Source: an uncultured virus (IMG/VR IMGVR_UViG_3300027749_000050) (lineage: Duplodnaviria; Heunggongvirae; Uroviricota; Caudoviricetes). Taken from it: a DNA stretch of 64,000 nt. The translations under genes and the position numbers were made by a program. Shown here one piece after another: positions 15,718-62,797 of this stretch (position 1 is its first letter; each line of letters opens with the position of its first letter). The stretch is from IMG/VR virus record IMGVR_UViG_3300027749_000050; one strand, written 5' to 3'. The notes beneath the pieces were generated by a model. That model saw only the letters and a program-made list of their open reading frames with translations, was not told the DNA's origin and did no database searches.

Positions 15718-16349
15718 TTATTTGGTTTTTTTATTGATTCATAATACTTAAAATCATCTTCTGATATTCCTATAAATTCAGGAAACAAAGAAGTGCTTGA
15801 CATTCTTGTATCTATTCTAAGATTCTTTAAAATGTATGCTCCTTGTTTTACATTCTCTAACAAGAAGTCATCTCCATATGACACTTTCATTTGTTCAGGA
15901 ATAGGAATATAATTTTCTTTTTTTATAAAAATTAAACACCCCCAGCCTGATGGTCTTCTATCTATTTGTTCTATTTCATAAGGAAGATTTCTATCTATAG
16001 GATCATAGTTACTACAACATTCTCCTATAACACCTCTATCAATAACTCCACTTATAAAATCAAATACACTTGTGTTAAAATTTATGTCATCATTACAAAG
16101 TGCTATGTTATTATACTTAGCTACACTCACTCCAAGATTCCAGGCAGGATTAACATAAATATTTTTTTCCTTGCTTATAAGAGTTATTTTACTGTATGGC
16201 TTTTTAATGTAAGAATGATATAAGTTATCATTATCTATTAATACAATTTCACCCACTGTATCACAAGCTTCTAAATCATCTAATAACTTATGTATATGGT
16301 GAGCTTTCCACAGTGTTGGTATTACCACTGTAAACTTATCTCCATTCAT
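15714..16349 (-). CDS. Glycosyltransferase, GT2/GT-A fold
   Basis: TVVIPT, IVLIDN, AWNLG, CNDD, YGDD. Confidence 0.85.
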   Translation of the reverse strand: MNGDKFTVVIPTLWKAHHIHKLLDDLEACDTVGEIVLIDNDNLYHSYIKKPYSKITLISKEKNIYVNPAWNLGVSVAKYNNIALCNDDINFNTSVFDFISGVIDRGVIGECCSNYDPIDRNLPYEIEQIDRRPSGWGCLIFIKKENYIPIPEQMKVSYGDDFLLENVKQGAYILKNLRIDTRMSSTSLFPEFIGISEDDFKYYESIKKPNK

Positions 16350-17319
16350 TTATCTTTTCTTTTATAAGTTGATAAATCCAAGTTGATAATGAATAATACT
16401 CATCAGTGAGTTGAGGAAGCATCCATTCTTCTTTTGCATCCTTAGAGTGTAACCACATATGAGAAACAACAGGATATTTGTTTTTAATCAAATCATAAAA
16501 ACTTGATGCTGTAGATTTAGTGCACTTATAACTTCCCCATTCATACTTATCTAAATCAGGAAGTGTTTTATAAAAGTCACACATCTCTCCTCCGTGCATG
16601 CATCTGTCCCAATAAGAAGAAGCAGATACAAAATCTTCATATAGATATAAAAGAGTTAATCCTATATCAAAGCTCACTCTTATATGCTGTATGTTATTTT
16701 TTATAACATCTAATGTCAAAGACTGCCAAGAAAAATTATCACCTATATAAACAGCTTTCTCTGCATTTAGAAATTTAGGATGAGATAGAATTTCTTCAAT
16801 GATATGATGGAATGGTTCAAAATTTAACCAACAATCATTTCTTGGAAACATAGTGATTTCATCATACCCTCTAAGTTCTCTATACTTTCCTGGAATACAA
16901 TCTTCAGGTTGTAAATTGTTATAGTGACATGTATGAGGATCATAAGATCTACATATAAGATTCTTCACTGGAGCAATTGGTTTAATTGCTAAGTCATCTG
17001 TATCAACATAACTACCACCAAACTTATATAGTAAAACAAGTCTTATTAAATCTGAAACTTCTCTTGGGTGAGCATTTAAATAATACTTCTCTACAGTTTC
17101 TAATGGTACAGGAGTGCCTTCAAACAATGACAAATCCCATTTCATTATTTTGATTTTAAACTTAGCATCAAGCATGTCTTCAGTAAGACTATTAGATACT
17201 ATTGTTATGTCATGATTAGGATTAAATACTCTTGTAGAATAAACTGAGTCTTTTAAAATCTTTAATCTGCTATCTGATATTGGACCATCCCAATAAAAAA
17301 ATATATTTAAGCTATGCAT
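16336..17319 (-). CDS. DXD sugar-binding glycosyltransferase (GT32/OCH1-like)
   Basis: SDLIRLVLLYKFGGSYVDTD signature; N-terminal FFYW. Confidence 0.85.
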   Translation of the reverse strand: MHSLNIFFYWDGPISDSRLKILKDSVYSTRVFNPNHDITIVSNSLTEDMLDAKFKIKIMKWDLSLFEGTPVPLETVEKYYLNAHPREVSDLIRLVLLYKFGGSYVDTDDLAIKPIAPVKNLICRSYDPHTCHYNNLQPEDCIPGKYRELRGYDEITMFPRNDCWLNFEPFHHIIEEILSHPKFLNAEKAVYIGDNFSWQSLTLDVIKNNIQHIRVSFDIGLTLLYLYEDFVSASSYWDRCMHGGEMCDFYKTLPDLDKYEWGSYKCTKSTASSFYDLIKNKYPVVSHMWLHSKDAKEEWMLPQLTDEYYSLSTWIYQLIKEKINEWR

Positions 17320-18233
17320 GATACCTCCTTGGTTTTTAAAATTTCTTCAACATATTTAAAAGAACAAAAATCTTTACTAAAGGTTTCTTCTTTTATATTG
17401 TAAGGACTAGAATTAATATATGCTCCTTTAAAAAACAATTCTGCTCTATCTACAGTGACACCAGCATTGTGATAAATATAATGTTTATCCCATTCTTGTA
17501 TGGTGGATGTTCCCCATGAGAAGGACATCTTTTCTGCAACTTTTACCGTCTTATCAAAGAACCAAAGATTCCATAATACAGCCCACATATCTGCACACCA
17601 TATTTGAATCTCATGCATAGAAGGATCAGTTTGTCTATCTTTATCTATCTGATCATTTATAAGTCTATACAAGTTTTCAGCATCATAATAGACCTTCTTC
17701 CAAAACTCAGTGGGAATATTCTTAAGTATATATTGAGCTCCCCCACTGTTTTGTTCTTCATTTATAAGTAGATCTTTATTTACATTAACTATTCTAGACA
17801 TCATATCTAGATAGTGTTCTCCTTTTGATCTAATATAATTAGCACCTATATAACTAACTGTGTCACTTACATAACATACGTCATCTTGTAAAAGATCATC
17901 AAACTCTAAAGGCTTAGATAATACAATATCACAATCATGATAAAAAATTGTTTCATATTGTAACTCAGGATGAAGAGTCCAATGTTTATGTAATAGATGA
18001 GGTCTTATACTAGAAATATATCCAGCTTTCACTCTATCATCATGATAAAAGAAAAAGCCTACATTGTTATATGTATCTGCAAGACTTTTCCATTTTTCTG
18101 AAATTGTTCCATAATGACCACAGACAATTTGTATATTATTTGGATTTACTCCTTGTCTAATAAAATTGTTAATCATTACTTCTACCTGCCAGGTATAATA
18201 ATCTATGGCAGGCTGTGCACAAATGAACTTCAT
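17307..18233 (-). CDS. GT-A glycosyltransferase resembling peptide O-glycosyltransferases (HPAT/SERGT-like)
   Basis: YYTWQVEVM, SIRPH, IFYHDCD, GGAQY, WCADMWA in the order of plant hydroxyproline arabinosyltransferase/serine galactosyltransferase motifs (recalled by eye). Confidence 0.6.
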   Translation of the reverse strand: MKFICAQPAIDYYTWQVEVMINNFIRQGVNPNNIQIVCGHYGTISEKWKSLADTYNNVGFFFYHDDRVKAGYISSIRPHLLHKHWTLHPELQYETIFYHDCDIVLSKPLEFDDLLQDDVCYVSDTVSYIGANYIRSKGEHYLDMMSRIVNVNKDLLINEEQNSGGAQYILKNIPTEFWKKVYYDAENLYRLINDQIDKDRQTDPSMHEIQIWCADMWAVLWNLWFFDKTVKVAEKMSFSWGTSTIQEWDKHYIYHNAGVTVDRAELFFKGAYINSSPYNIKEETFSKDFCSFKYVEEILKTKEVSCIA

Positions 18234-18838: not shown

Positions 18839-21319
18839 TTAATTTTGTATAATTCTCACTGACAATCCAAACTTAGCAGAAGGTGCTGTAGTTATACCTA
18901 AACCTGAAAAATTTGTTCCCATAAAAACATAACCAACAGTATTACCAAACCACCAATAACCATTTCCAGTTAGACCACTAAATGTCCCAGATGATGATCT
19001 TTGTCCACCTGGAAGTGCAGTAAATCCTGTAAGATTATTTCCATTACTATATGTACCAGCAGCCCAACCTGTTGTACTTTTTAAACGAGTTGATAAACTA
19101 CCAACACAAGTTGACAATGTTGACCAATCACCACTGGTAGCTACACGATAACCTAATGGAGCTAATCCTCTAAAATCATCAACAGCTTCCCAATTGTATA
19201 ATCTTCCATAAATAGGTTCAGTGGCAGGATCATTATTATAATAACACCAAGCACCCGTAGTTAATGCAGCCCAAGCAGTTGGGTCTGTAACTTGAGGTAT
19301 GGCATCACCATTTCTATAAGTTGTAACACTTAAGTTAGTAGTAGACCAAAGATTAGGACTAATAGCACATAATATATATGGATTTACCGTAGTAGTTGTT
19401 GTAGTGCTAGGTGCAGCAGTAGTAGTAGATGTTGTAGTAGTTAATAAACAACTTCCAACTACAGAGTATGTAATATCACTACTTGATGTAACAATTGATG
19501 ATAGTATTAAACAAGTATTAAAACTTACTTGTAAAGGAGCTAAGTCTAATTTAAAGTTTTGTTTATTACAGTCAGCATACACTACAGTTCCTGTTTTACC
19601 ATTATTAGTAAATACTACTTCTGTACATATATTAGATGGTGGAACTGTAGTAGTTGTACTAGTAGCAGGACACTTTTTTGATACACAATTTGCTCCCACT
19701 GCTATGTTTACTAAAGATGGTTGCCTAGCTGTAGCATTTGATCCACACACCTGAACTGATTGATAAGGTGGAAGAACACTATTTGGAAAAGGCATTAGTA
19801 GAATATTATTATCACAATCAGTATACCAAACATCTTGTGGAAAACCAGATGTATTTACAATAGTAATACAATTACAAGCTATAGTGGTTGTAGTAGTTGT
19901 GCTTGGAGCTATGGTAGTAGTGCTAGTAGTTGGACTAGCTGTTGTTGTAGGAGTAACTGTACTTGTTGTAGTAGTTGGAGGAACAGGAGGACAACTTGCT
20001 CCACAAGGCCCATTATTAACTAAACTATATATCCAAGTTGATGGTGTTGGATTAGAAGGATTTTTAACTGGATTAAATATACCATTTCCACACCAAGAAA
20101 AACTTGCCCCAGGTAAAATGCTATTTAATACAACATCATTACCATCACAATCTTTATAATCTAAACGATAAAATGAACTTGGATCAGTTTCTAAATTTTT
20201 TATAGTATAACAATTACATGCACTAATAGTTGTTGTAGTGGTAGTACTAGGTGCTATTGTAGTAGTGGTAGTTGTAGGAACAGCTTTTAATGTAGTGGTA
20301 GTTGTTAAGTTATTACTAAACTCTTGAGTTAAACAACTAGCTATTTGAGAAGCTCCTAAAATTATATCAAGAGGATTACCATTTGTAGGATATCCTATAC
20401 GTGTAATTGTATTTGGAGAACTTGTACCAATAGTATATATACCACTGGAACCATCCATTATATATACTAAACTTCCACTTTCAAATAATCCGTATGGAAA
20501 ATTTATAGTAGGGTTTAATTTCTTTTCAAATTCTAATGTACCTGTAGTATAATCATATTGAGAAATATAATTGTCAGTTCCATCATCTGATAATACAATA
20601 AATTTATTAGTAGTTGTTAATAAAAAATCTCCTGTTACTCCTCTTCCTGCTGGAAGATTAAATTTAGATGTAAACACTCCAGTTAATGTATTAAATTCTC
20701 CAACAACAGAAGTTGTAGTAGATCCATTAACTACAAGAAGAGTGGTATTATTAATAGCATGTAGCCCAGCAGATGATACAAAACCAGGAGGCCATAAAAG
20801 ATTTTGATTAAATGTAGCTGACCAAGGACTTAATGTAATATTATATTCTACAAATGCTCCGGCTCTAAAATCTACAAACCACATCTTTGTAGCTGTATGA
20901 GCTATATCTAAATCTATAAATGTTGATCCTGTTATACCTGGAACAAATAAAGAAGTGACAAAGTTAGTACTAGTGTTATAAGAATAAACGGCTCCTTTTG
21001 CATAATATATAGGACTACATGTAGACACCACAACATTAGATGTTGTACTGGTAGTAGTAGGAGAAACCGTACTTGTAGTTGTAGTTGGGTAAGGAATATT
21101 TATATAATTATAACTACTACATAAAGCACTTACAGATTGAACTTTTATTTTAACAGCATTGTCAGGAATATTAGTAAGTAATAATCCTGATAGAAGTTGA
21201 GACTTTGATACATTAGATTGTACCAATGTTTCAATACCATTGATGTCTACTGAATACAAATCAAAGGGACCTGTATTTCCTCCTAAATTACTTAACTGTA
21301 TATATAATGTTTGTGCCAT
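18839..21319 (-). CDS. Modular adhesin-like protein: propeller-like region, mucin-like Thr tracts, Cys modules, C-terminal Fib_succ_major (FISUMP) domain
   Basis: C-terminus NLSVTTYRNGD...WCYYNND...YGRLYNW...GFTALPGG...GYWW...GLSVR is FISUMP-like; many PTTTTT linkers. Confidence 0.75.
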   Translation of the reverse strand: MAQTLYIQLSNLGGNTGPFDLYSVDINGIETLVQSNVSKSQLLSGLLLTNIPDNAVKIKVQSVSALCSSYNYINIPYPTTTTSTVSPTTTSTTSNVVVSTCSPIYYAKGAVYSYNTSTNFVTSLFVPGITGSTFIDLDIAHTATKMWFVDFRAGAFVEYNITLSPWSATFNQNLLWPPGFVSSAGLHAINNTTLLVVNGSTTTSVVGEFNTLTGVFTSKFNLPAGRGVTGDFLLTTTNKFIVLSDDGTDNYISQYDYTTGTLEFEKKLNPTINFPYGLFESGSLVYIMDGSSGIYTIGTSSPNTITRIGYPTNGNPLDIILGASQIASCLTQEFSNNLTTTTTLKAVPTTTTTTIAPSTTTTTTISACNCYTIKNLETDPSSFYRLDYKDCDGNDVVLNSILPGASFSWCGNGIFNPVKNPSNPTPSTWIYSLVNNGPCGASCPPVPPTTTTSTVTPTTTASPTTSTTTIAPSTTTTTTIACNCITIVNTSGFPQDVWYTDCDNNILLMPFPNSVLPPYQSVQVCGSNATARQPSLVNIAVGANCVSKKCPATSTTTTVPPSNICTEVVFTNNGKTGTVVYADCNKQNFKLDLAPLQVSFNTCLILSSIVTSSSDITYSVVGSCLLTTTTSTTTAAPSTTTTTTVNPYILCAISPNLWSTTNLSVTTYRNGDAIPQVTDPTAWAALTTGAWCYYNNDPATEPIYGRLYNWEAVDDFRGLAPLGYRVATSGDWSTLSTCVGSLSTRLKSTTGWAAGTYSNGNNLTGFTALPGGQRSSSGTFSGLTGNGYWWFGNTVGYVFMGTNFSGLGITTAPSAKFGLSVRIIQN

Positions 21320-32295: not shown

Positions 32296-34287
32296 TTAAT
32301 ATTGCTCGAAAGTACCACCTGCAGAGTTAACAGGAATGTTATTACCAGAAGCAGCTGCAGCAGTAACTAAATAGTTAGTTAAAGATGAAGTTGAAGTACC
32401 AGTAGGAACGTTAAACACTAACAAGTATTGATCATTATCAAACATACCACTTGGGTTATTAAATCTAGGAACACTATGTAAAACCATAACTTGATCATAC
32501 AAAGAAGTTCTAGAAATACTAGCCAAAGCTGGGTTTTGCTCAATTTCTCTCATCCTTAAGCTTTCTACACGATTGCTATCAGGGTAAGCTAATTGTAAGT
32601 AACGATCAGAAAGAATCATATCACGTAGTACAGTTTCACCACTTCCTGAAGCTTGTATTGGAAGTTGAATCACTGTATTATCATTAGCTGATGTATTTGA
32701 TCCTGTATTAGCATTTGTAGTAGTAAAGCAGAAAGAAGAACAAGGATCACCAGACTCATCAACAATTGATGTGTACATTAACAATGGTTCCAAGTCATAT
32801 TTATCTGTTGGAGTGAACGTACAGATACCAAACTTAGTTTCAATATAAGCAGCACTTAATTCAATATGTGGAGCCTCTGTGTAAGTAAATGAAGCAGCAT
32901 CAGCAGCAGCAGAATAAAGTAAAGCACCACTAGCTGAAGCAGCTATTGTAGCACCTGTAGCAGTACCAGCAGAAACTACAGCAGATCCACCAACACCAGA
33001 TTCTGTTCCTGTACCTGGAATAACTGTAGCAGTACCTATTTGAGGTGTGCCAATTGCACCAGAATAAAGATCACTATATGCTTTAACACTCACTGTAGCA
33101 GCAATTGTAGGAGCAGTTTGTTGAGTTGGATAAGTAACAGTAATACCTGTAGTAGATGTCAAACCAGTAATAAAAGCATTAGCAGGAATACCTGTACCAA
33201 CAACTTTCATACCCACTAACATACTTGTATTAGTAACAGTAAGACCCACTGTAGAAGTTGTAGCAGCACTACCAATTGCTGTAGCAGCAGTAGTAATAAC
33301 ATGCTTGTAAACTCTAGCTTGAACCATTGTATTAAAAATAGGACTCAAGTTAATTTGATCAGCCCAGTTTAACAATGTAGCAACTGGATCTTTAACCAAA
33401 GTAGGATCTACAGTGTTGCAACAACCTGTATAAGAATCTAATGTTCTATACATGTTATGAGATAAGAAACGTAAAGCTGGAGAACCTTTAACATCTACAC
33501 GTAATCTAAAAGTAGTATCACAAGGCAATCCACAAGTTACAGGAATGTTAACAACCATCTGACGAGCTTGTTTAGCAACTACCTTAATTACACGTGAAAT
33601 GTACTTAGGGTTAATCATCTTAGTCTTAACAGATTCTTTGTAACCACCAAGAGCAGGACTAATCTTATCACTGTTAAAGTAAGAACCTTGAGCAATCATG
33701 AAAGGTTTAGCACTAGCTGCTTGAACAGCAACACCATCTGGAGAGAAGAAACCAACTTGACCAGCTGTTAAAGATGCAGATGAACCAGTAGATAATAAAG
33801 GAACAGAAAGACCAAAAACAATTGAAGCAGTTGTAGAAATTGTAGCAGTTACAGAACTAGACAAAGTAACTAAAGTAGCACTAACAGCAGTAACTGTTGT
33901 ACCAGCAGGAATACTTGTACCAGTTACAGACATACCAACTGAAACACCAGTAGTAGCAGCAAACTGTAATACGTTTGGAGCATTAAAAGAAGCACTTGGT
34001 GTAGTAACCAACGGAGTTGTTGGAACACCAATTGTTAATGATGTAGTACCACTTACTAAAAGAGCAGTGATAGGCAATGATAATGTTACAGTTGTACTTG
34101 CAACACTAACAATTGTAGTACCTGCTTGAATACCAGCACCAGAAATAGATTGACCAGCTACAACACCAGTTGCACTAGTTAACGTTATTACGGTACCCAC
34201 TGTGGTACCTAATGTAGCTGTAGCTAATGTAGTAGCAGCCACTGAAGAAGGAAGAAAGCTCTTCCTAAAGGCATGAGGAAAATACAT
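32296..34287 (-). CDS. Probable abundant virion structural protein with three inserted small beta domains
   Basis: 663 aa; three (V)xG(M/Q)xxxGxxIxAxxxI/V repeats; leader shared with the MCP gene; own terminator. Confidence 0.6.
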   Translation of the reverse strand: MYFPHAFRKSFLPSSVAATTLATATLGTTVGTVITLTSATGVVAGQSISGAGIQAGTTIVSVASTTVTLSLPITALLVSGTTSLTIGVPTTPLVTTPSASFNAPNVLQFAATTGVSVGMSVTGTSIPAGTTVTAVSATLVTLSSSVTATISTTASIVFGLSVPLLSTGSSASLTAGQVGFFSPDGVAVQAASAKPFMIAQGSYFNSDKISPALGGYKESVKTKMINPKYISRVIKVVAKQARQMVVNIPVTCGLPCDTTFRLRVDVKGSPALRFLSHNMYRTLDSYTGCCNTVDPTLVKDPVATLLNWADQINLSPIFNTMVQARVYKHVITTAATAIGSAATTSTVGLTVTNTSMLVGMKVVGTGIPANAFITGLTSTTGITVTYPTQQTAPTIAATVSVKAYSDLYSGAIGTPQIGTATVIPGTGTESGVGGSAVVSAGTATGATIAASASGALLYSAAADAASFTYTEAPHIELSAAYIETKFGICTFTPTDKYDLEPLLMYTSIVDESGDPCSSFCFTTTNANTGSNTSANDNTVIQLPIQASGSGETVLRDMILSDRYLQLAYPDSNRVESLRMREIEQNPALASISRTSLYDQVMVLHSVPRFNNPSGMFDNDQYLLVFNVPTGTSTSSLTNYLVTAAAASGNNIPVNSAGGTFEQY

Positions 34288-34354
34288 AGTTTTTAAATTT
34301 AAGGGTTATAAATAAATAAATAATTTTGTTGTGTTTATAATATAATATACGTAA

Positions 34355-34816
34355 TTATTTTAAAAATAACAATTTATATTTTGTAGAATCTATAAGACTC
34401 TTTACTTCATCTAATTGATTAACAATCTCACTATGAGGCATAATAGATTGTAAAGCTGCAGTTTTATCTTTTAAAGTTCTAAGATAGTCAATTGTTTCTT
34501 CCACTGAATTTAATTCTGTAGGAGCTGTATTAGGCATTTCTAAAAGCTTCTCTTCAGCACCTTGAAATTGTTCTACAATAGAATCAGCATGATCACCAAT
34601 TTCATCATAAAATTCATTAAGAGCTTTATGAGCTGCAAATGAACCTAAGCCTGTAACTTTTAAATGAATCTTATGAATACTAGTTACAGCATTTAATAAG
34701 TCTTGTGCTAAAGCTGCTGTTTGAATACACACTCCACAAGTTTCAGCTTGAGGCATCATTGCTGCCATACTTGGTCCACTCATTGAAAATATTCCTGGTT
34801 TTTGTAAAGCTCTCAT
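34355..34816 (-). CDS. Dps/ferritin-like protein
   Basis: HKIHLKVTG..SFAAHKALNEFYD...DSIVE.FQG and C-terminal YKL.FL four-helix-bundle pattern. Confidence 0.75.
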   Translation of the reverse strand: MRALQKPGIFSMSGPSMAAMMPQAETCGVCIQTAALAQDLLNAVTSIHKIHLKVTGLGSFAAHKALNEFYDEIGDHADSIVEQFQGAEEKLLEMPNTAPTELNSVEETIDYLRTLKDKTAALQSIMPHSEIVNQLDEVKSLIDSTKYKLLFLK

Positions 34817-34821
34817 ATTAT

Positions 34822-35523
34822 TTAACTATTTGATTGTACATTTTGTTGTTGTCTTTGATATTGAGTTACTGATTCAATATCTCCGGCTAATATCATTGCT
34901 GCATTATCAGCTATCACTTCAGCTACATCATCATTAAACTCACATTCTTGATTTGCTGTAAAAGGAAATCCTGTTTTTATATCTATACAATCAGTAAACT
35001 GTACTTCTGTAGGTTTTCTATAATATACAAGATAACATTTAGAAATTTCAAATTCACCATTGGTATATACTCTCAAAGAGTTATCTATTCTTGTTGCTAC
35101 AGTTTCGGCCCATTCAAAGTTTGGTTGCCTATTCTTATCATTTAGAATAATAGATATGTTAGCTTCTTCCACTTCATATACAGTTAGTCTACGTTCTGGG
35201 CAACATGTTTGTTGAGCAAATACATCTGTACGTACATAGTGAAGATAGTCAGTTGGTAATGCATCTGCTTTATAATAGATTTGTTTATCTATCATAGTAA
35301 GTAATTCTACCTTCATTAATTTCTGTAGATCATCCACCAAACCACTACTTTGTTCAACACCCTCTTTACGAATATTAATACCATACATTTGTCTTCTAGT
35401 CCATTCTAATTGAGCTTTATTAAAAGCCTCAGCTATTTGCCAACACTCAAGATTATCATAATCCAGGGAGGCTAGCTTATTAAGCCTTTGTTTTATTTTA
35501 ATCTGTAATAGGTTATTGTTCAT
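34822..35523 (-). CDS. Head-tail adaptor/ring protein
   Basis: FNKAQ..W, LPTDYL, YYRKP motifs typical of crAss-like ring proteins. Confidence 0.6.
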   Translation of the reverse strand: MNNNLLQIKIKQRLNKLASLDYDNLECWQIAEAFNKAQLEWTRRQMYGINIRKEGVEQSSGLVDDLQKLMKVELLTMIDKQIYYKADALPTDYLHYVRTDVFAQQTCCPERRLTVYEVEEANISIILNDKNRQPNFEWAETVATRIDNSLRVYTNGEFEISKCYLVYYRKPTEVQFTDCIDIKTGFPFTANQECEFNDDVAEVIADNAAMILAGDIESVTQYQRQQQNVQSNS

Positions 35524-35772
35524 TTAGCATTTCCATTTTCTCAGTGACTTATTAATTCTACTATCAGGATCTCTAGCTGTCTTAGCAGATGTAAGTTTAG
35601 CTTTCATTCCTTTCATTCTAGCACAGAATGATTTCTTTCTAGGACCACCTTCAGGCTGAGGTGCTTTAAGATTACCACCAGTAGCTTTATTGTAAGAAGC
35701 TCTTCCTTTAGCATTTAAACCACCACTTGGTGATTTACCTTCTTTTCTGGTCCAAGCAGGAGTCTTTGCCAT
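35524..35772 (-). CDS. Small basic phage protein (DUF6321-like)
   Basis: GGLNAKGR...RKKSFCARM...SRINKSLRKWKC. Confidence 0.6.
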   Translation of the reverse strand: MAKTPAWTRKEGKSPSGGLNAKGRASYNKATGGNLKAPQPEGGPRKKSFCARMKGMKAKLTSAKTARDPDSRINKSLRKWKC

Positions 35773-35774
35773 AA

Positions 35775-36128
35775 TTACTTCTTTTTAGACTTAACCATTC
35801 CACCTTTTTTCATAGTAGCTCCTGCTATTTTATCAGCATATGTTGCTTTATCATAAGGTTTAGCAAGTGCTTTAAAAGGAGTAGATCCACCTTTAGCCAT
35901 CTTAGGTTTTTTAGACTTTCCTACAGATCCACCTTTTTTATATCCAGGTGCAGGATTTGTCAAAGTAGGTTTTCCAGGATTAGGGTTAGGTCCTATTGGT
36001 CCATAATAATTAGGATCAACAGAACTTCTACTAACAGGAGGAGCATCATTTTTAACTGGTCTAGAATCAGCTGTTCCACCTGGACCATATTTTTTCATAG
36101 ACTTAGAAGAACCAATTTTGTTTTTCAT
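35775..36128 (-). CDS. Small basic disordered protein with four xxGG motifs
   Basis: KYGPGG, YKKGG, MAKGG, MKKGG. Confidence 0.7.
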   Translation of the reverse strand: MKNKIGSSKSMKKYGPGGTADSRPVKNDAPPVSRSSVDPNYYGPIGPNPNPGKPTLTNPAPGYKKGGSVGKSKKPKMAKGGSTPFKALAKPYDKATYADKIAGATMKKGGMVKSKKK

Positions 36129-36129
36129 G

Positions 36130-36276
36130 TTATTTCTTTTTAGACTTTATTTTCTTTTCTTGTTTTAACATTTCAGGAGTGGGTTTTTTACCACTACCTT
36201 TAGCAGCTCTGATATTATCCCACAATCCACGTTGAGATGTAGAACCATCTTTACGTTTAATCATTTGCTTTGCCAT
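36130..36276 (-). CDS. Small basic protein (48 aa)
   Basis: Manual translation MAKQMIKRKDGSTSQRGLWDNIRAAKGSGKKPTPEMLKQEKKIKSKKK*; fills the gap between neighbours. Confidence 0.65.
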   Translation of the reverse strand: MAKQMIKRKDGSTSQRGLWDNIRAAKGSGKKPTPEMLKQEKKIKSKKK

Positions 36277-36277
36277 A

Positions 36278-37252
36278 CTATTTAGGTAATCCTGCTTTAA
36301 ATGTTGTTGTTAAATCTACCCAAGTTGTAGTGCCCTTTGGTAGTTTTTGAAAACTTACTACATCTATATATGCTTCATATCCATCATCAACATTTATAAA
36401 TGTACCACTCATAAAAAATGCATCTCTTGTACTTCCATTAATTGCATTTGTTCCAGCTGCTGATCTTATACCTGTAGCACCTAACAAAAATGTTTGTCCA
36501 GCAGCTCTTAATATTTCTGTAGCTATTACCATTTGAGCAGCTGTAGCTGAACCAGTTAATGGTGCCAAAGCTGCTCTATTAGTTGTTGATGCTAGTATAT
36601 TAGTTAAAAAGAACTGTTGGTAATCATCAACAAAATTTGATTGTACAGGAAGTCCAGCATTATTAATAGCCCAATTTATAGCTGCTTGTACAGCACCACA
36701 AGAAGTGTTTTGACTAGTTTGTCCTTTTCTAAGTATAGATCCCACTGTACCATTGCTAGATATACCAATGTGTGGCATATTCATTACAAACAAATTACCT
36801 GTATCTGTAACGTGACTTGCATAAGCACCCAAGCCAGTAATACCTGTATGTGGGTAACCAGCTAAACCACCAGACATAAATGGTCCTAAATACTCATTTA
36901 ATGATAAAGGATGTTGTCCTAAATTATCTTCATCTAGAAACATAGGTGCATTAATATCATCAGAACAAACTGATAAAGACATCAATGTATTACCTGCAGC
37001 ATATCCTAAATTCTTTAAAAATAATTTATTATACTCTCCAAATGCTTGTGCTGACACAGCATTAGGGTAGGTAACCCTAACTGTTTTAGTATATGAAGAT
37101 GGATTTCTAAAATCTGTATTTTCATTAATCACTTCAATCCATTCTCCTGGTTTAGGATTTTTAAATGCAAAAGTTAATGAACCAGCAGCTATATCACCAG
37201 CTGGTTTACGAAGAACAAAAGGTTTTTTAGGCTTAATGTTATAACTTCTCAT
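36278..37252 (-). CDS. LCIB/theta-type carbonic anhydrase-like protein
   Basis: SVCSDDIN, F.SGGLAGYP..G.TG..A..SH, MPHIGIS..G..G...RKGQ, SCGA: Cys/His/Cys zinc ligands in LCIB/theta-CA spacing. Confidence 0.8.
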   Translation of the reverse strand: MRSYNIKPKKPFVLRKPAGDIAAGSLTFAFKNPKPGEWIEVINENTDFRNPSSYTKTVRVTYPNAVSAQAFGEYNKLFLKNLGYAAGNTLMSLSVCSDDINAPMFLDEDNLGQHPLSLNEYLGPFMSGGLAGYPHTGITGLGAYASHVTDTGNLFVMNMPHIGISSNGTVGSILRKGQTSQNTSCGAVQAAINWAINNAGLPVQSNFVDDYQQFFLTNILASTTNRAALAPLTGSATAAQMVIATEILRAAGQTFLLGATGIRSAAGTNAINGSTRDAFFMSGTFINVDDGYEAYIDVVSFQKLPKGTTTWVDLTTTFKAGLPK

Positions 37253-37254
37253 AG

Positions 37255-37389
37255 TTATTTAGATTTTACAGAGTCAACAATTTTAACTGTATCTACTTTT
37301 ACACATGTAGAATCAGAACTAACTTCTTTTGTAGTAGCTGATTTACAAGATGCTAACACTACCAATCCTACAAATAATAATTTTTTCAT
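37255..37389 (-). CDS. Small lipoprotein (44 aa)
   Basis: Manual translation MKKLLFVGLVVLASCKSATTKEVSSDSTCVKVDTVKIVDSVKSK*; LASC lipobox. Confidence 0.65.
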   Translation of the reverse strand: MKKLLFVGLVVLASCKSATTKEVSSDSTCVKVDTVKIVDSVKSK

Positions 37390-37397
37390 TTTATATT

Positions 37398-37538
37398 TTA
37401 TTTTTTCTTAGCCATTTTTTTTAATGTCATAGCAAGAGCTTTTCTTTTAGGAGTACAAGTAGCTTTAGTCATAGGAGTACAATAACCCTTATGTGCTGGG
37501 TTAATTGCTTTCTGTATCCATTTTTTATCTTTTGCCAT
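37398..37538 (-). CDS. Small basic protein (46 aa)
   Basis: Manual translation MAKDKKWIQKAINPAHKGYCTPMTKATCTPKRKALAMTLKKMAKKK*. Confidence 0.65.
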   Translation of the reverse strand: MAKDKKWIQKAINPAHKGYCTPMTKATCTPKRKALAMTLKKMAKKK

Positions 37539-37555
37539 TATTTAACTTTTAAAAA

Positions 37556-37819
37556 TTAAGCAATAGTTTTTTCAGCTTTGATACGTCCAATAACACCTAT
37601 TACTAATCCTATAAGTGTAATCACTTGACCTAAGATTAAACCTACATTACCTTGAGCAGCTTTAATAGCTTCAATAGCAGCTTGAGTTTGATCAACTGTA
37701 GCATCTACAGGAAGATTAACACCAGGAACTTGTAATACATTTGTAATAACAACTCCTAAAGTAGCTACTATAATTCCCCAAATTGTTTTTGATAAATACC
37801 ATTTTTTTGTCTGTGTCAT
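37556..37819 (-). CDS. Holin-like two-TM membrane protein
   Basis: KKWYLSKTIWG start, two hydrophobic helices, C-terminal GRIKA. Confidence 0.55.
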   Translation of the reverse strand: MTQTKKWYLSKTIWGIIVATLGVVITNVLQVPGVNLPVDATVDQTQAAIEAIKAAQGNVGLILGQVITLIGLVIGVIGRIKAEKTIA

Positions 37820-37842
37820 AATTTTATTTTAAATTTTTATAA

Positions 37843-38859
37843 TTATTGATTCCAATGTTTCTCTACTTTTTTAGTAAGATCTATAAGAAGCTCTTCATTT
37901 AATGGATTTCTTAAATATTCAAATACATCTGTTAAGTTACGACCCATCATTGTTGTAGTAGACATATGATAGATAAATCCATCAGCTTTAGTAGCAATAT
38001 ACTTGTAGTAGTTTGATTCTTTTATAATAGCTTTAATCTTTAATGTTTCCATATCAAAATTAGCTGCTTCAAGAAATTTTTCTGCTGTTTTCTTTTTGTT
38101 CTTATCTACAGATTCTCCGTTAATATATTTATCCATGTTGTCATAGATAATATCATTAGGTGTAGACTTTTTATACTGAGCACCATTTATATCTAACACT
38201 TTAGCTACATACAATAATTTATTCTGATTCTTATCAAATAACTTCTGAAGTTCTGATAAAGCTTTATTTCTAAGTTTTTTAATTTCTGTATTAACTGATG
38301 CACTTTCTTCAAGTTTATCAAGATAAAACTTAGGAGGTGTTGGCATAGTACGAGCTTCTTCTAAAGACTTAGCTACCATTGAAAACCCACCAGCTTCTAT
38401 TGCCAATAATCTAATCAAATCATAAGGATCTGTAACTGGCTCTAAATGCACTGGTTCATTACCACATCTAATTTTAATCTTATCCCAAAACTCACCATTG
38501 TTTTGTTTAAGTAAAACAATCTTATTCCAAAAATCTTTATCTTCAGGATCTACAACATTAGCTGCAAGTTCTTTTTCTAACTGAGCAACTACAATACGTA
38601 TTTGTTTAATCTTAGCTTCTTGTTCTTCTAAAGGAAGAGCTTTAACTTCTGGAGCAAATTCATTTAGTCCAGTGACATAACGTTTGATTCCATTGATTTC
38701 TAAACATGCAACTGTTTCTTCATGAAATGCTCCATCAAAAAGACTAAGTCCATACTTTTGAAGTCCCATATTATCTACTTGTGAATCAAAATAAGGACGT
38801 ATTGCAATACTAGATTTTTTGTTCTGTGGGTATTTCTCCACAATTGTTACATTACTCAT
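37843..38859 (-). CDS. Conserved crAss-like protein downstream of MCP (function unknown)
   Basis: 338 aa helical protein, RYVTGL motif, capsid-module synteny. Confidence 0.5.
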   Translation of the reverse strand: MSNVTIVEKYPQNKKSSIAIRPYFDSQVDNMGLQKYGLSLFDGAFHEETVACLEINGIKRYVTGLNEFAPEVKALPLEEQEAKIKQIRIVVAQLEKELAANVVDPEDKDFWNKIVLLKQNNGEFWDKIKIRCGNEPVHLEPVTDPYDLIRLLAIEAGGFSMVAKSLEEARTMPTPPKFYLDKLEESASVNTEIKKLRNKALSELQKLFDKNQNKLLYVAKVLDINGAQYKKSTPNDIIYDNMDKYINGESVDKNKKKTAEKFLEAANFDMETLKIKAIIKESNYYKYIATKADGFIYHMSTTTMMGRNLTDVFEYLRNPLNEELLIDLTKKVEKHWNQ

Positions 38860-38929
38860 GTTTGGTTTTTTTGGTTTATTTTATATGAATCATCGGAATT
38901 ATTCCGATAAAGTATTCTAATTCTTACAA

Positions 38930-39397
38930 TTAATCTCCTATTTTAACTATCTCATAGTTAAGATATATAGTACCCCAAGTTGTTGAAGTAGGTTGAGCAA
39001 TAGCAATATTCATAATTCCTTCTCCTATTGCAGAAGTCATTGGAATTATTCTTGATGTATATATAACATTAGTAGCACTAGCTAAAGATGTTTGTACAAA
39101 AAACTTTTCAGCATCTACAGAAGCAAATTCAGCATTAGTAAGACTAATTGTTAATAAAGCACTAGTAGCACTACTTGTAACTTTGATTATACCTTTTTTA
39201 GTAGTAACAGGTACAGTAGCTGCTGATGTAGCACCACAAGCACCTGTATATGCAATTTGATCATTAATATCTCTAGATAAAGCATTTGTATCTGTAAGTC
39301 TAGCAAAGGTAGCTTGTTTATATCTATTTGCTCCTGCAAGTTTAATGTCTTTATCAGGAGAATTTGGGTTTTGAACTAATCTTTTGAAGATTGCCAT
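38930..39397 (-). CDS. Putative capsid-associated structural protein
   Basis: 155 aa, beta-rich C-terminus, near MCP. Confidence 0.45.
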   Translation of the reverse strand: MAIFKRLVQNPNSPDKDIKLAGANRYKQATFARLTDTNALSRDINDQIAYTGACGATSAATVPVTTKKGIIKVTSSATSALLTISLTNAEFASVDAEKFFVQTSLASATNVIYTSRIIPMTSAIGEGIMNIAIAQPTSTTWGTIYLNYEIVKIGD

Positions 39398-39596
39398 AAT
39401 TATATATTTTAAATTTTTAAGTAATTGAACCTAATAAGGGTTGCAAATCCTTCACATGATCAGTGTGGTATGCATACTATAGGTGATCTAAAGATACTAT
39501 CTTTAGAGGGGGTTATTTTCTGGGTTTAGCAGGCTTATCATTACTATCTTGTTTACAGATAATGGTTGACTTGTTTTTCATAGAAAATAGTTTTAT

Positions 39597-39633
39597 TAAA
39601 TAATGGAGAAGTTACGGCTCCTCCATTTATTTA
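39597..39633. terminator. Inverted repeat/terminator-like hairpin
   Basis: TAAATAATGGAG...CTCCATTTATTTA just past the stop of the 59-aa ORF. Confidence 0.45.
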
Positions 39634-39638
39634 AAAGT

Positions 39639-39818
39639 TTAGCATTTTTTACCTTTCATACTACCACCATATTTCATTTTAGTCATTGCTGACTTAGGAG
39701 CAGTAGAAGAAACAACACCTTTACCAGCATTTTTACCTACCATTACACCTTTAGTAGATGCACCTGGACGGCCTGATTTAGGAGCTACAGACTTTGAAGT
39801 TTTTGGATTACCAGCCAT
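39639..39818 (-). CDS. Small basic protein (59 aa) with MKYGG motif, directly after MCP
   Basis: Manual translation MAGNPKTSKSVAPKSGRPGASTKGVMVGKNAGKGVVSSTAPKSAMTKMKYGGSMKGKKC*. Confidence 0.7.
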   Translation of the reverse strand: MAGNPKTSKSVAPKSGRPGASTKGVMVGKNAGKGVVSSTAPKSAMTKMKYGGSMKGKKC

Positions 39819-39851
39819 TGTATATATATTTTAAATTGTGACTTTATAATG

Positions 39852-39885
39852 ACCTGCTAGCAGTTCTTATGGTATGCTAGCAGGT
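39852..39885 (-). terminator. Hairpin after major capsid gene (terminator/stabilizer)
   Basis: ACCTGCTAGCA-N12-TGCTAGCAGGT perfect 11-bp inverted repeat; no clear U tract. Confidence 0.55.
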
Positions 39886-39899
39886 ACTGTTATAATATA

Positions 39900-41519
39900 T
39901 TAGAATGATCCACCAGTTACAGGGTTTCTCATAACAATCTTCAATACTTTCGTAGGGTCTTTCACCCAAATAGCAGGCATTGTCTGTGTCATGAATACAC
40001 GATATCCGTTAAAGTTTCCAGAAGACTGGAATCCTTGTGTACGTCCCATGTAATCCATAGTACCATTTTGATAGAACCATTTCAATTGATTATCCCAAGA
40101 CAACTTCAACAAATAGATATTATCATTTGTGTTATCTGTGATATCAAAGATAATGAAATTATATGAACTTAATGGGAAACCATCAATAATTGGATTCTCA
40201 ATATCATTTGTATGAACATTATCAAAAGCTGGGTTCAACACAAACTTAACGTTAGCTAAGAATGGAATTACATAACTAGTGTAAGCAAATCCAAAGTTCA
40301 AGTCCATTCCAGTACCAGTTACAGCACCAAGCTCATGAGCATTAAGAACTAAACCAGAGTTAACTGCTTCTTTCTTAATTGCTTCGTTTACAAGCTTCAT
40401 ACCACCCATACCTGTTTGAACGATCAAAGAACGTTGAGGATCTGGACCTTTAAATTCAACTTTACCGTTGAAGAAGTTAAAGATTTCAGATTTAAACAAA
40501 TCTAAGTTAAATGAACCTCTATTATAGATTCTCTTATAAGAGTTATCTAATTGCTTCCAAAGACCAACTGATAAACGAATATCATCTGGACCATCTTGTC
40601 TAACTTTACCACCTTGTCCCCACATTAAGTAAGTCTCAATGTCATTAGCAATCTTAGTCAAATGAGCTGCTTCTAAAGTAGTTAAGAAAGAACGAGTTAA
40701 TTGACCATTTGCATAAGCCTTCTTAACGTAATCCTTACCCATCTTCTCAGCCATTGTTTCTAAGTTAGTAACTGAAGGATCTACATTCTTATCAAAGTTT
40801 CTCCACATTTCAATTACTGGAACTGTACCATCAGCTTTCATACCACCTTTCATCATCAAGTCAGCACGACTAGAAATAGAATAATGTACGTGAGCTTCTG
40901 CTCCTCCTACGTAGTTGTAGAATTCACGGAAACCAGCTGAAACGTTTCCAAGATCAGAGAATCTTTCTCCATACTCTCCACGTGCAGAACCTTTACGGAA
41001 CACCTTAGTACCAACTTTTAAATACTTGTTATCCAAATACTTAGTGTTGTCATTGTTTACTAACTGAACAGTGTAAATAAAACCATCTCCTGCTGGGATG
41101 ATATCATCCACAGTGATGTACATTTCCACACCATTGTACTTATCATAAGTGATAATATCACCATGACCAAAGTAACGTTTGTTAATTTTGATTTTGAAGG
41201 TTTGACCATCAATACCTTTAGTAGCATTAGATGATTCAATATCTTCAATAATGTAAGGAAGATCCTGAGCTACAGGAATCTGCCACTTGTACTCACCACG
41301 GTTATTATCTACTGAAATAACGTTCTTACCACCAAAAGATGACATTTGATACAAAGGCATTTCTACTTTTTGTGCCATTGCCCAAAGATCCACTGGACCT
41401 AAATCTGTAGGCTCAGCTGATTTAAGGAGGTTAGAAAGGTGGTACGAATCTACGTGTGAACTAGTCGTGTAGTTATTGTCACGTAGGAATATACCATTGT
41501 TTAAAACTGGGGTTGCCAT
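39900..41519 (-). CDS. Major capsid protein (crAss-like)
   Basis: 539 aa; terminase-portal-scaffold-MCP order; YKWQI, GLWKQL, TG.GG motifs; strongly biased codon usage. Confidence 0.85.
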   Translation of the reverse strand: MATPVLNNGIFLRDNNYTTSSHVDSYHLSNLLKSAEPTDLGPVDLWAMAQKVEMPLYQMSSFGGKNVISVDNNRGEYKWQIPVAQDLPYIIEDIESSNATKGIDGQTFKIKINKRYFGHGDIITYDKYNGVEMYITVDDIIPAGDGFIYTVQLVNNDNTKYLDNKYLKVGTKVFRKGSARGEYGERFSDLGNVSAGFREFYNYVGGAEAHVHYSISSRADLMMKGGMKADGTVPVIEMWRNFDKNVDPSVTNLETMAEKMGKDYVKKAYANGQLTRSFLTTLEAAHLTKIANDIETYLMWGQGGKVRQDGPDDIRLSVGLWKQLDNSYKRIYNRGSFNLDLFKSEIFNFFNGKVEFKGPDPQRSLIVQTGMGGMKLVNEAIKKEAVNSGLVLNAHELGAVTGTGMDLNFGFAYTSYVIPFLANVKFVLNPAFDNVHTNDIENPIIDGFPLSSYNFIIFDITDNTNDNIYLLKLSWDNQLKWFYQNGTMDYMGRTQGFQSSGNFNGYRVFMTQTMPAIWVKDPTKVLKIVMRNPVTGGSF

Positions 41520-62316: not shown

Positions 62317-62758
62317 GGGCCTGACCTGGATTTTGACAGAGTAAGGAAGGTAGTATCACATGCAAAGCCTAGTCAGTGGCTAAACAAACTGATTAACAAT
62401 AAAAGACAACGTAGAATTATCTACTTGGAGCTTTGATGACATGCTTGCATTCATTGGAGCTGATGAAGCTATTGCAGCCTAGTCAACCGGGGCAGCTGAT
62501 AGCCTTGCAACAGAACAGCCACATGTAAAGACAGAGGGTCTTCCTTTGACACTGATCATCCAAGACTATATGATGTAAAAAGAAAGTTAGTTTTCTAGTT
62601 CATAAACTAGATGGTGGAGCTGGTGGCTTTTAAACCACTGGTTAGTTCCCTTACGGTGCAAATAACGGGGGTTCATCCTCTTGATTGTTAGTACTAAGCA
62701 TGTAAGAATGGTATTATTAGAATTATTTTGGACCAGGGTTCGATTCCCTGCAGGTCCA
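62317..62758 (+). ncRNA. ssrA: tmRNA
   Basis: 5' GGGCCTGACCTGGATTTTGAC; 3' GACCAGGGTTCGATTCCCTGCAGGTCCA; G3-U70 alanine pair; internal tag ORF ending AIAA*. Confidence 0.92.
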
Positions 62759-62797
62759 CATTCTTTTAACAAAATTAAATAACCAAAAAATTAACTA

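Follow-up and report, generated by a model that had tools for sequence, protein, structure and literature searches.

A phage-encoded protein of the LCIB/theta-type carbonic anhydrase family with a portable N-terminal module

The window considered here is a stretch of 64,000 nucleotides from an uncultured virus (IMG/VR record IMGVR_UViG_3300027749_000050). On its minus strand, at positions 36278..37252, lies a gene for a 324-residue protein that a preliminary description, made from the sequence alone, had taken for a phage-encoded LCIB/theta-class carbonic anhydrase (CA). The protein is built of a short N-terminal module, hereafter called the handle, a linker and an enzyme domain. Its features are listed below, with active-site residues matched to those of PtLCIB4 of Phaeodactylum tricornutum. 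Invariance refers to an alignment of 67 viral and distant sequences, which was also the basis of the structure model; model confidence is expressed as the predicted local distance difference test (pLDDT).

36278..37252 (-), LCIB-type open reading frame (ORF), ATG start, TAG stop, 324 residues, handle-linker-enzyme protein; codons checked
37121..37252 (-), handle, residues 1-44, with three short beta strands (residues 10-15, 27-29 and 37-40)
37103..37120 (-), linker, residues 45-50, probably flexible (pLDDT <50 at residues 44-46)
36281..37102 (-), LCIB/theta-CA (beta-CA fold) enzyme domain, residues 51-324, from Pfam, Protein Data Bank (PDB) sequence search and Foldseek
36965..36967 (-), Cys96, putative first zinc ligand (PtLCIB4 Cys46, numbered via the S47R mutant chain), invariant in 67/67
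36959..36961 (-), Asp98, putative catalytic Asp of the C-x-D motif (PtLCIB4 Asp48), invariant in 67/67
36812..36814 (-), His147 (PtLCIB4 His88, the residue altered in PDB 5b5z, H88A; from alignment with that chain), invariant in 67/67
36770..36772 (-), His161, putative second zinc ligand (PtLCIB4 His102), invariant in 67/67
36728..36730 (-), Arg175 of the R-x-G-Q motif (aligned with PtLCIB4 Arg116), invariant in 67/67
36698..36700 (-), Cys185, putative third zinc ligand (PtLCIB4 Cys126), invariant in 67/67
36917..36946 (-), insertion of the viral clade (residues 103-111) directly after C-x-D-D-x-N, ending in invariant Gly112, from the alignment

Family assignment and active site

The motif set on which the proposal had been based is present in full (C96-S-D98-D-I-N101, G128-G-L-A-G-Y-P134, P160-H161-I-G163 and S184-C185-G-A187), far beyond what chance would give. 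In a Pfam search the protein scored 122.8 bits (E 1.7e-35) with PF18599 (LCIB_C_CA), whose gathering cutoff is 25, residues 69-247 being aligned with profile positions 5-180 of 223; the distant viral homologues also score above this cutoff (90.9-109.5 bits). When PDB sequences were searched with phmmer, eight chains of the LCIB family and nothing else were retrieved at E <= 0.01, among them 6kfs (7e-21), 9vzj (4.5e-20) and PtLCIB4 5b5y (1.2e-17), as well as LCIB 5k5w and LCIC 5b5x. The structure model (pLDDT 89.7, predicted template modelling score 0.84) found PtLCIB4 5b5y as its best Foldseek match, with E 7e-16, a template modelling (TM) score of 0.86 on the target and 261 aligned columns; 6kfs, LCIC and LCIB followed (E up to 8e-7), and classical beta-CAs appeared only at E >= 1.7e-3. 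A sequence and a predicted fold could hardly place the protein in the LCIB/theta-CA family more firmly, and we regard its membership as practically certain.

Nothing of this type is a recognised gene of known phages, as had been supposed. There is no PHROG family for the LCIB-type protein and no NCBIfam family either, four proteins compared with NCBIfam having given no match, a tblastn search of 50,697 GenBank phage records gave zero matches for the window protein or for a distant viral homologue, and the fold search of BFVD gave no match at E <= 0.001, with only weak matches to beta-CAs of giant viruses (E 0.027). No report of a phage LCIB/theta-type enzyme was found in the literature, judged by search results alone. 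The enzyme family is a known one, and what is new is the virus-only branch, the modular architecture and the phage setting.

Among the characterised relatives, the theta-type CAs PtLCIB4 and PtLCIB3 have the same Pfam family and the same fold as the phage protein. In the comparison with PtLCIB4, the Cys, His and Cys ligands, the catalytic Asp, the equivalent of His88 and the Ser after the first Cys all align; on the other hand, identity is about 25%, PtLCIB4 is a eukaryotic algal protein without an N-terminal module, and the phage protein has an insertion of 8-9 residues after C-x-D-D-x-N and a diverged C-terminal third. Chlamydomonas LCIB and LCIC (5k5w, 5b5x), which belong to the algal CO2-concentrating mechanism, share family and fold as well, with a weaker match (E 1e-7, TM on target 0.70-0.72). 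In the excerpted text of a review, the activity of LCIB and LCIC is described as unconfirmed (PMC10096703). A C-R-D-E form, with Arg after the Cys, occurs in the LCIB family, whereas the phage protein has Ser at this place.

The numbering of PtLCIB4 was anchored on the names of PDB mutants, S47R lying directly after the first Cys and H88A being the His of A-G-H-I-P. With this numbering, the predicted Cys-His-Cys site is borne out by the alignment, in which C96, H161 and C185 correspond to C46, H102 and C126 and are invariant in the 67 sequences. The three PtLCIB4 residues reportedly bind zinc, and PtLCIB4 is said to be an active CA. The residue that follows Cys96 is Ser, as in wild-type PtLCIB4, the S47R mutant chain having Arg. 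Further along, three solved chains read C-S-D-E-V-N-R where the phage protein reads C-S-D-D-I-N-A. The missing Arg after the motif Asn was considered as a sign of inactivity and rejected, because family members differ at this position (H, N, S, A, T or R in 179 aligned domains of 150 representative proteins); its absence is thus no defect, and the residue does not define the family.

The four core residues are kept in 35/35 distinct proteins from viral loci, a set obtained from 46 viral-locus matches by taking those of >=200 residues and removing exact duplicates and one fragment of 78 residues. In comparisons with six relatives, the ratio of nonsynonymous to synonymous substitution rates (dN/dS) was 0.20-0.39 for the whole gene, 0.10-0.42 for the handle and 0.17-0.46 for the enzyme domain; the gene, handle included, is under purifying selection. 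Throughout a diverse viral clade under selection, the ligands are strictly conserved together with Asp98, His147 and Arg175, and this argues for a working zinc enzyme. Interconversion of CO2 and bicarbonate is the default reaction, and the protein is likely to be an active enzyme of this kind. This likelihood is not set higher because no viral or bacterial member of the family has to our knowledge been assayed, activity is unconfirmed for LCIB and LCIC themselves, and the viral branch has a long stem and an insertion by the active-site motif, so that its substrate may have changed.

The handle and other leaders

The N-terminal extension had been described as basic, and so it is, with six Lys or Arg in the first 16 residues; this account can be refined, since the extension proves to be a portable beta module of about 44 residues on a flexible linker. 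Its conserved residues in the alignment are G19, G24, L26, P33-K34, G36, W38 and E40-V41, and its model reaches a pLDDT of about 89-91 over residues 11-40. The handle itself and the handle proteins gave no Pfam match.

An iterated ORF search found the handle, of about 44 residues, at the head of a Ser/Thr/Gly-rich protein of 246 residues in two other viral loci (L033, L034). In an alignment-based scan of viral contigs, 27 handle loci were obtained, made up of 11 LCIB genes and 16 other ORFs. The latter have 55-246 residues and none has an enzyme domain; in them the handle is followed by Y-E-C-C and poly-Thr, alone or with a further small domain. With the handle of another carrier as the query, 432 protein clusters of 135-431 residues were found, and among the 120 listed, 119 were without a Pfam domain, one had PF13884 and none had PF18599. 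In BFVD, a 142-residue protein encoded by a published uncultured virus matched over 41 columns with 39% identity and seems to be a further handle carrier. A word-based search with the handle of the window (residues 1-48) showed no portability, because 18/18 matches were LCIB proteins; it is the alignment-based scan and the search with the other carrier's handle that carry the conclusion. The N-terminal module is portable across unrelated proteins.

The handle is not the only leader found on these enzymes. In three loci (L016, L036 and L038) the LCIB domain stands behind a different leader of about 45 residues, which is common to six neighbouring proteins with Pro/Thr linkers, one of which matches a baseplate/fibre-connector. 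No further carrier of the extensions present in L017/L026, in L014 or in L037 turned up among the DNA examined.

A comparison may be drawn with branched receptor-binding-protein systems, in which interchangeable domains, either receptor-binding or enzymatic, are fixed to the phage particle by conserved N-terminal docking peptides. The likeness lies in a short conserved N-terminal unit before unrelated C-terminal parts, with Thr-rich or Pro/Thr-rich linkers. The differences are that docking is a prediction in the case of the handle, that within the window's group it occurs on the LCIB protein only, and that its cargo here is a CA-type enzyme and not a binding or depolymerase domain.

Another observation concerns the glycosyltransferases near handle genes. 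The phrog_4417 protein (window 17307-18233 (-), L033 6001-7026, L051 1471-2487), labelled in PHROGs as of 'unknown function', is a GT-A/GT8-like glycosyltransferase, with an invariant Y-C-D-S-D (DXD) motif and a model (pLDDT 77) that gave 89 PDB fold matches at E <= 0.001, the best of them to WbbM, the UGGT catalytic domain, glycogenin and a Skp1 galactosyltransferase. A second DXD glycosyltransferase (16336-17319, Pfam Gly_transf_sug) lies beside the phrog_4417 gene in the window. In other phages, the phrog_4417 gene stands <=2 genes upstream of handle-plus-poly-Thr genes in 8/10 loci scanned, and this proximity suggests that the Thr-rich tails of handle proteins are glycosylated.

A virus-only branch and an insertion hotspot

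Relatives of the protein numbered 207 at E <= 1e-5 in a set of 5.8 billion proteins, with PF18599 in 120/120 among the matches listed, and 921 at E <= 0.001 among 1.84 billion cluster representatives; in viral contigs, relatives with 38-100% identity are encoded at 38 loci. The phylogenetic tree had 118 rows, made up of 35 proteins from viral loci, 20 representatives of viral type, 31 other representatives and 32 genome proteins (of the best 80, the first 12 and 20 drawn at random). In this tree, which comes from a quick IQ-TREE search with many long branches and support only from the Shimodaira-Hasegawa-like approximate likelihood ratio test (SH-aLRT), one clade comprises 55/55 viral-type rows with a support of 100. 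Gly112 is present in 100% of these 55 rows, and its column is a gap in 98% of the 63 cellular rows.

The nearest cellular rows come from Fluviicola, another Bacteroidota genome, Chitinophaga and Methylobacter (joint fork support 93, drawn unresolved). This cellular group has 379 matches in species genomes, the best 80 being mostly from Bacteroidota. Its proteins have about 250 residues and start directly with the enzyme domain. These single-domain LCIB_C_CA proteins of freshwater Bacteroidota and Methylobacter (L147-L155) share C-S-D-D-I-N with the phage protein and score 180-189 bits with Pfam; they differ from it in having neither the N-terminal extension nor the viral insertion, and are separated from the viral clade by a stem of 1.71 changes per column. 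We know of none of them that has been characterised. The genes around the nearest cellular homologues (40 ORFs at six loci) were heterogeneous and gave no functional hint, with no inorganic-carbon genes among them. When the viral-clade alignment was run against 185,579 species genomes, there were 79 pattern matches and no relative, which is weak evidence of absence because the scan depends on two patterns. It seems reasonable to interpret that the viral branch was probably captured once from bacteria of a Bacteroidota-like host kind and then spread among unrelated phages.

The carriers include two crAss-like lineages, namely the group of the window and that of G004 (Crass_capsid E 1.1e-30), and complete phages of 203 kb and 217 kb without a crAss capsid gene. 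The LCIB-type gene lies directly after the portal gene in L017, and in L026 and L030 it directly follows the major head gene, which is accompanied by protease and head-closure genes; judging by PHROG names, these three contigs look T4-type. Tandem pairs of LCIB-type genes occur in five lineages (L013, L014/L015, L024, L035 and L037), the two copies falling in different subclades. The arrangement is reminiscent of LCIB/LCIC, and by that analogy the pair may form a heteromer with one anchored subunit. Enzymes of the beta-CA type act as oligomers and need dimerisation.

In the window, the gene belongs to an accessory island between two structural genes:

35524..37842 (-), accessory island in the insertion hotspot, with an 87-residue ORF with two transmembrane segments, the LCIB gene, a 117-residue ORF and a DUF6321 ORF
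37556-37819 (-), 87-residue ORF with two transmembrane segments, island member
35775-36128 (-), 117-residue Lys-rich ORF, island member
35524-35772 (-), DUF6321 ORF, from Pfam
37843..38859 (-), upstream flank of the hotspot, conserved head-module gene p338 (338 residues), from relatives and synteny
34822..35523 (-), downstream flank, conserved gene p233 (233 residues), phrog_29507 'virion structural protein' (E 2.2e-8), from synteny
39900..41519 (-), crAss-type major capsid protein gene, Pfam PF23898 Crass_capsid (E 1e-32) and phrog_11589 (E 5.2e-32)

The preliminary description had placed the gene among capsid-region genes of a crAss-like phage. The setting was correctly recognised, with Crass_capsid, portal and large terminase genes on the same strand, and the gene does lie in the head module; it is not a fixed part of it, being an optional passenger of an insertion hotspot. 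The survey covered the best 80 of 351 relatives of p338 in viral contigs (75-100% identity), with the p338-p233 interval complete in 70/80. The LCIB gene was found in 6/70 loci with a complete interval (one of the six carriers being the near-identical record and two being identical to each other), and also in 4/10 loci with an incomplete one. The flanking genes abut in 55/70, with a gap of 5-56 bp, and nine loci have other inserts without LCIB. The inserts, present in 15/70 loci, are mosaics of Lys-rich ORFs of 47-120 residues, DUF6321 proteins, the ORF with two transmembrane segments and an occasional nuclease-like ORF. No LCIB match was obtained anywhere in the whole records of five non-carriers (0/5; four of them >=90% complete), and the same query found 5/5 known carriers as a positive control. 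The LCIB gene is an optional accessory gene of the hotspot. As for the small Lys-rich ORFs, they are shuffled among the hotspots of the window (35524-37842) and of L067-L146, and the small hotspot proteins might be packed with DNA.

Concerning the rest of the phage, the portal (phrog_6547, 2.5e-93) and large terminase (phrog_6681, 3.9e-66) genes lie just upstream on the same strand, and tail-region genes and two giant virion proteins, of 1513 and >2201 residues, follow downstream. Complete records of the same phage group have 124-131 kb. The stretch is present in DNA runs labelled freshwater, this label leaving aside the runs with a small share of sampled words (X8-X24, except X23), and contigs of two runs were aligned to it. 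A Dps/ferritin-like protein is encoded in the structural module (34355-34816 (-); DUF5856 E 6.9e-17, Ferritin E 9e-4, phrog_858); its gene is conserved across the phage group and adjoins handle genes in other phages. Beside it in relatives is kept a Ser/Thr/Ala/Gly-rich protein of 663 residues without a family match (window 32296-34287 (-)). A protein of 826 residues with a terminal Fib_succ_major domain (18839-21319 (-); Pfam E 3e-30) is probably a fibre or receptor-binding protein; the domain is typical of Fibrobacter and Bacteroidota and so fits a Bacteroidota host. The window also contains a transfer-messenger RNA (62317-62761 (+)), detected by ARAGORN with the tag peptide GAADSLATEQPHVKTEGLPLTLIIQDYMM and by the full Rfam model RF00023 (78.2 bits against a gathering cutoff of 47, E 1.2e-28). 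In other loci, the capsid gene of L004 (4003-5621) and the portal gene of L010 (740-3493) are each split into two ORFs, which may reflect a frameshift or an assembly error.

Proposed role and alternatives

The reading proposed here is that of a two-part protein, in which a tethering handle is joined to an active LCIB-type zinc enzyme encoded by an optional late gene; taken as a whole, we consider its chances to be evenly balanced. The preliminary description had suggested, as possible roles, bicarbonate supply or pH control during infection or a repurposed virion component. We infer zinc binding, CA activity, late expression and tethering. A Zn2+ ion held by Cys96, His161 and Cys185 would activate a water molecule oriented by Asp98, and this water would hydrate CO2 reversibly, yielding bicarbonate. 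Expression would coincide with that of the late structural genes. The handle would keep the enzyme from being free by anchoring it either to part of the host or to part of the phage, in the latter case most likely the particle.

On where the enzyme acts, the evidence points in two directions. Its delivery to a defined place, most simply the particle, is favoured by the modular build, by the reinvention of that build with another leader and by the position in structural modules, and a tethered or particle-associated enzyme is a real possibility, slightly ahead of a free one though short of being probable. A free auxiliary enzyme is favoured by the optional character of the gene, by the lack of other handle carriers in the group, by second copies without an extension and by a nucleotide-metabolism context; a location free in the cytoplasm is a possibility to be taken nearly as seriously.

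Several results weigh against the proposed reading. In the window, in the 80 related loci and in a complete 128-kb record of the group (G002), the handle is found on the LCIB protein alone, and LCIB-less relatives have no handle (G006) or only a marginal match (G005, E 0.0015); so here the handle travels with the enzyme gene. A handle shared by two proteins of one phage was observed in G004, and not in the window phage or in G002. In the tandem pairs a long N-terminal extension is confined to the first copy, the second being without any, and the LCIB genes of L014 have dCMP deaminase, RNA ligase and HNH genes for neighbours. Concerning the enzyme itself, the length of the viral stem, the clade-specific insertion of 8-9 residues adjoining the catalytic motif, the Ser of the viral clade at position 146, next to H147, where 70% of the cellular rows have His, and the end of the Pfam match at profile position 180/223, with the C-terminal third diverged, make a changed substrate or role possible. 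In favour of the reading, on the side of expression, two RNA libraries from two studies contain pieces of the LCIB gene: one metatranscriptome library has contigs identical to parts of the gene and its neighbours (36163-36417, 36526-36740 and 37034-37305), and the second, from the other study, has a 90-97% variant. These contigs may be DNA carry-over, they give neither strand nor level, and the stretches they leave uncovered are uninterpretable. A scan for sigma-70-type promoters and terminators over 34000-40000 stayed at chance level (31 against 29.2 expected, and 2 against 2.2).

The alternative closest to these points is a free cytoplasmic auxiliary enzyme, which would provide more bicarbonate for host carboxylases (those of carbamoyl-phosphate synthesis, purine ring carboxylation, and acetyl-CoA and phosphoenolpyruvate carboxylation) and thereby for nucleotide and lipid synthesis, the handle being incidental or an aid in folding or assembly. 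Bacteria need CA at ambient CO2. The residues of the active site are all in place, optional presence is typical of auxiliary genes and is seen here, and the nearest relatives are single-domain cellular proteins of cytoplasmic type without signal peptides; the neighbours in L014 and the second tandem copies without an extension fit as well. Viral alpha-, beta- and gamma-class CAs in viromes have likewise been discussed as auxiliary genes, the common idea being a virus-borne CA acting on carbon or pH; these belong to other classes, and the accessible portion of the source describes no LCIB/theta type and no fusion to a portable module (bioRxiv 10.64898/2026.01.21.700432). What a free enzyme explains poorly is a handle that is under purifying selection and is a widely reused unit, the independent fusion of the enzyme in two lineages to leaders that each of them shares among its own proteins, and the usual position of the gene inside structural modules. 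This alternative is a possible one that we find somewhat doubtful.

The remaining explanations concern the reaction, or the gene itself. From the viral stem onwards, the protein could be a zinc enzyme of the beta-CA fold with another substrate (for example in the hydrolysis of carbonyl sulfide or carbon disulfide, whose hydrolases have this fold) or with another zinc-site reaction, and this would account for the long stem, the insertion beside the catalytic motif, S146 and the diverged C-terminal third; it is improbable, given that all residues conserved family-wide are kept and that the best structural matches are LCIB-family chains, including those of PtLCIB4. It is more improbable still that the protein is catalytically inert and serves the particle as a structural, binding or sensing component, its zinc merely stabilising the fold. 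The head-module position, the fusion to portable modules and the LCIB/LCIC precedent, where a site comes without confirmed activity, would suit such a part, but Asp98, His147 and Arg175 are invariant besides the three ligands in the 67 sequences, and the gene, being optional, is not that of a required building block. Finally, a piece of cellular DNA misassembled onto a phage contig can hardly be entertained: at least 10 related viral loci have the LCIB gene in the corresponding slot, an identical copy is found in an independent viral record of 25.9 kb (G001), contigs of other DNA runs span the gene and its junctions, and the guanine-plus-cytosine content is uniform (0.32-0.34).

The proposed tethering can be carried one step further. 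Several unrelated phage lineages would mount the virus-only CA on their particles by means of lineage-specific N-terminal docking units, and the enzyme would act outside the cell, where, at the surface of the host or in its slime layer, it would alter CO2, bicarbonate and pH locally and so favour adsorption or entry. As a general account this is unlikely; if it were true, no other inorganic-carbon enzyme would be known to serve as a functional component of a virus particle.

So, it can be said that the handle-linker-enzyme build, reinvented with different handles in different lineages, suggests delivery to a specific place, and that the natural pairs of carriers and non-carriers (6/70) are ready-made controls. 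If the enzyme is active, freshwater phages with hosts of the Bacteroidota type manipulate CO2, bicarbonate or pH, and a family otherwise known from algal carbon concentration has a large virus-only branch.

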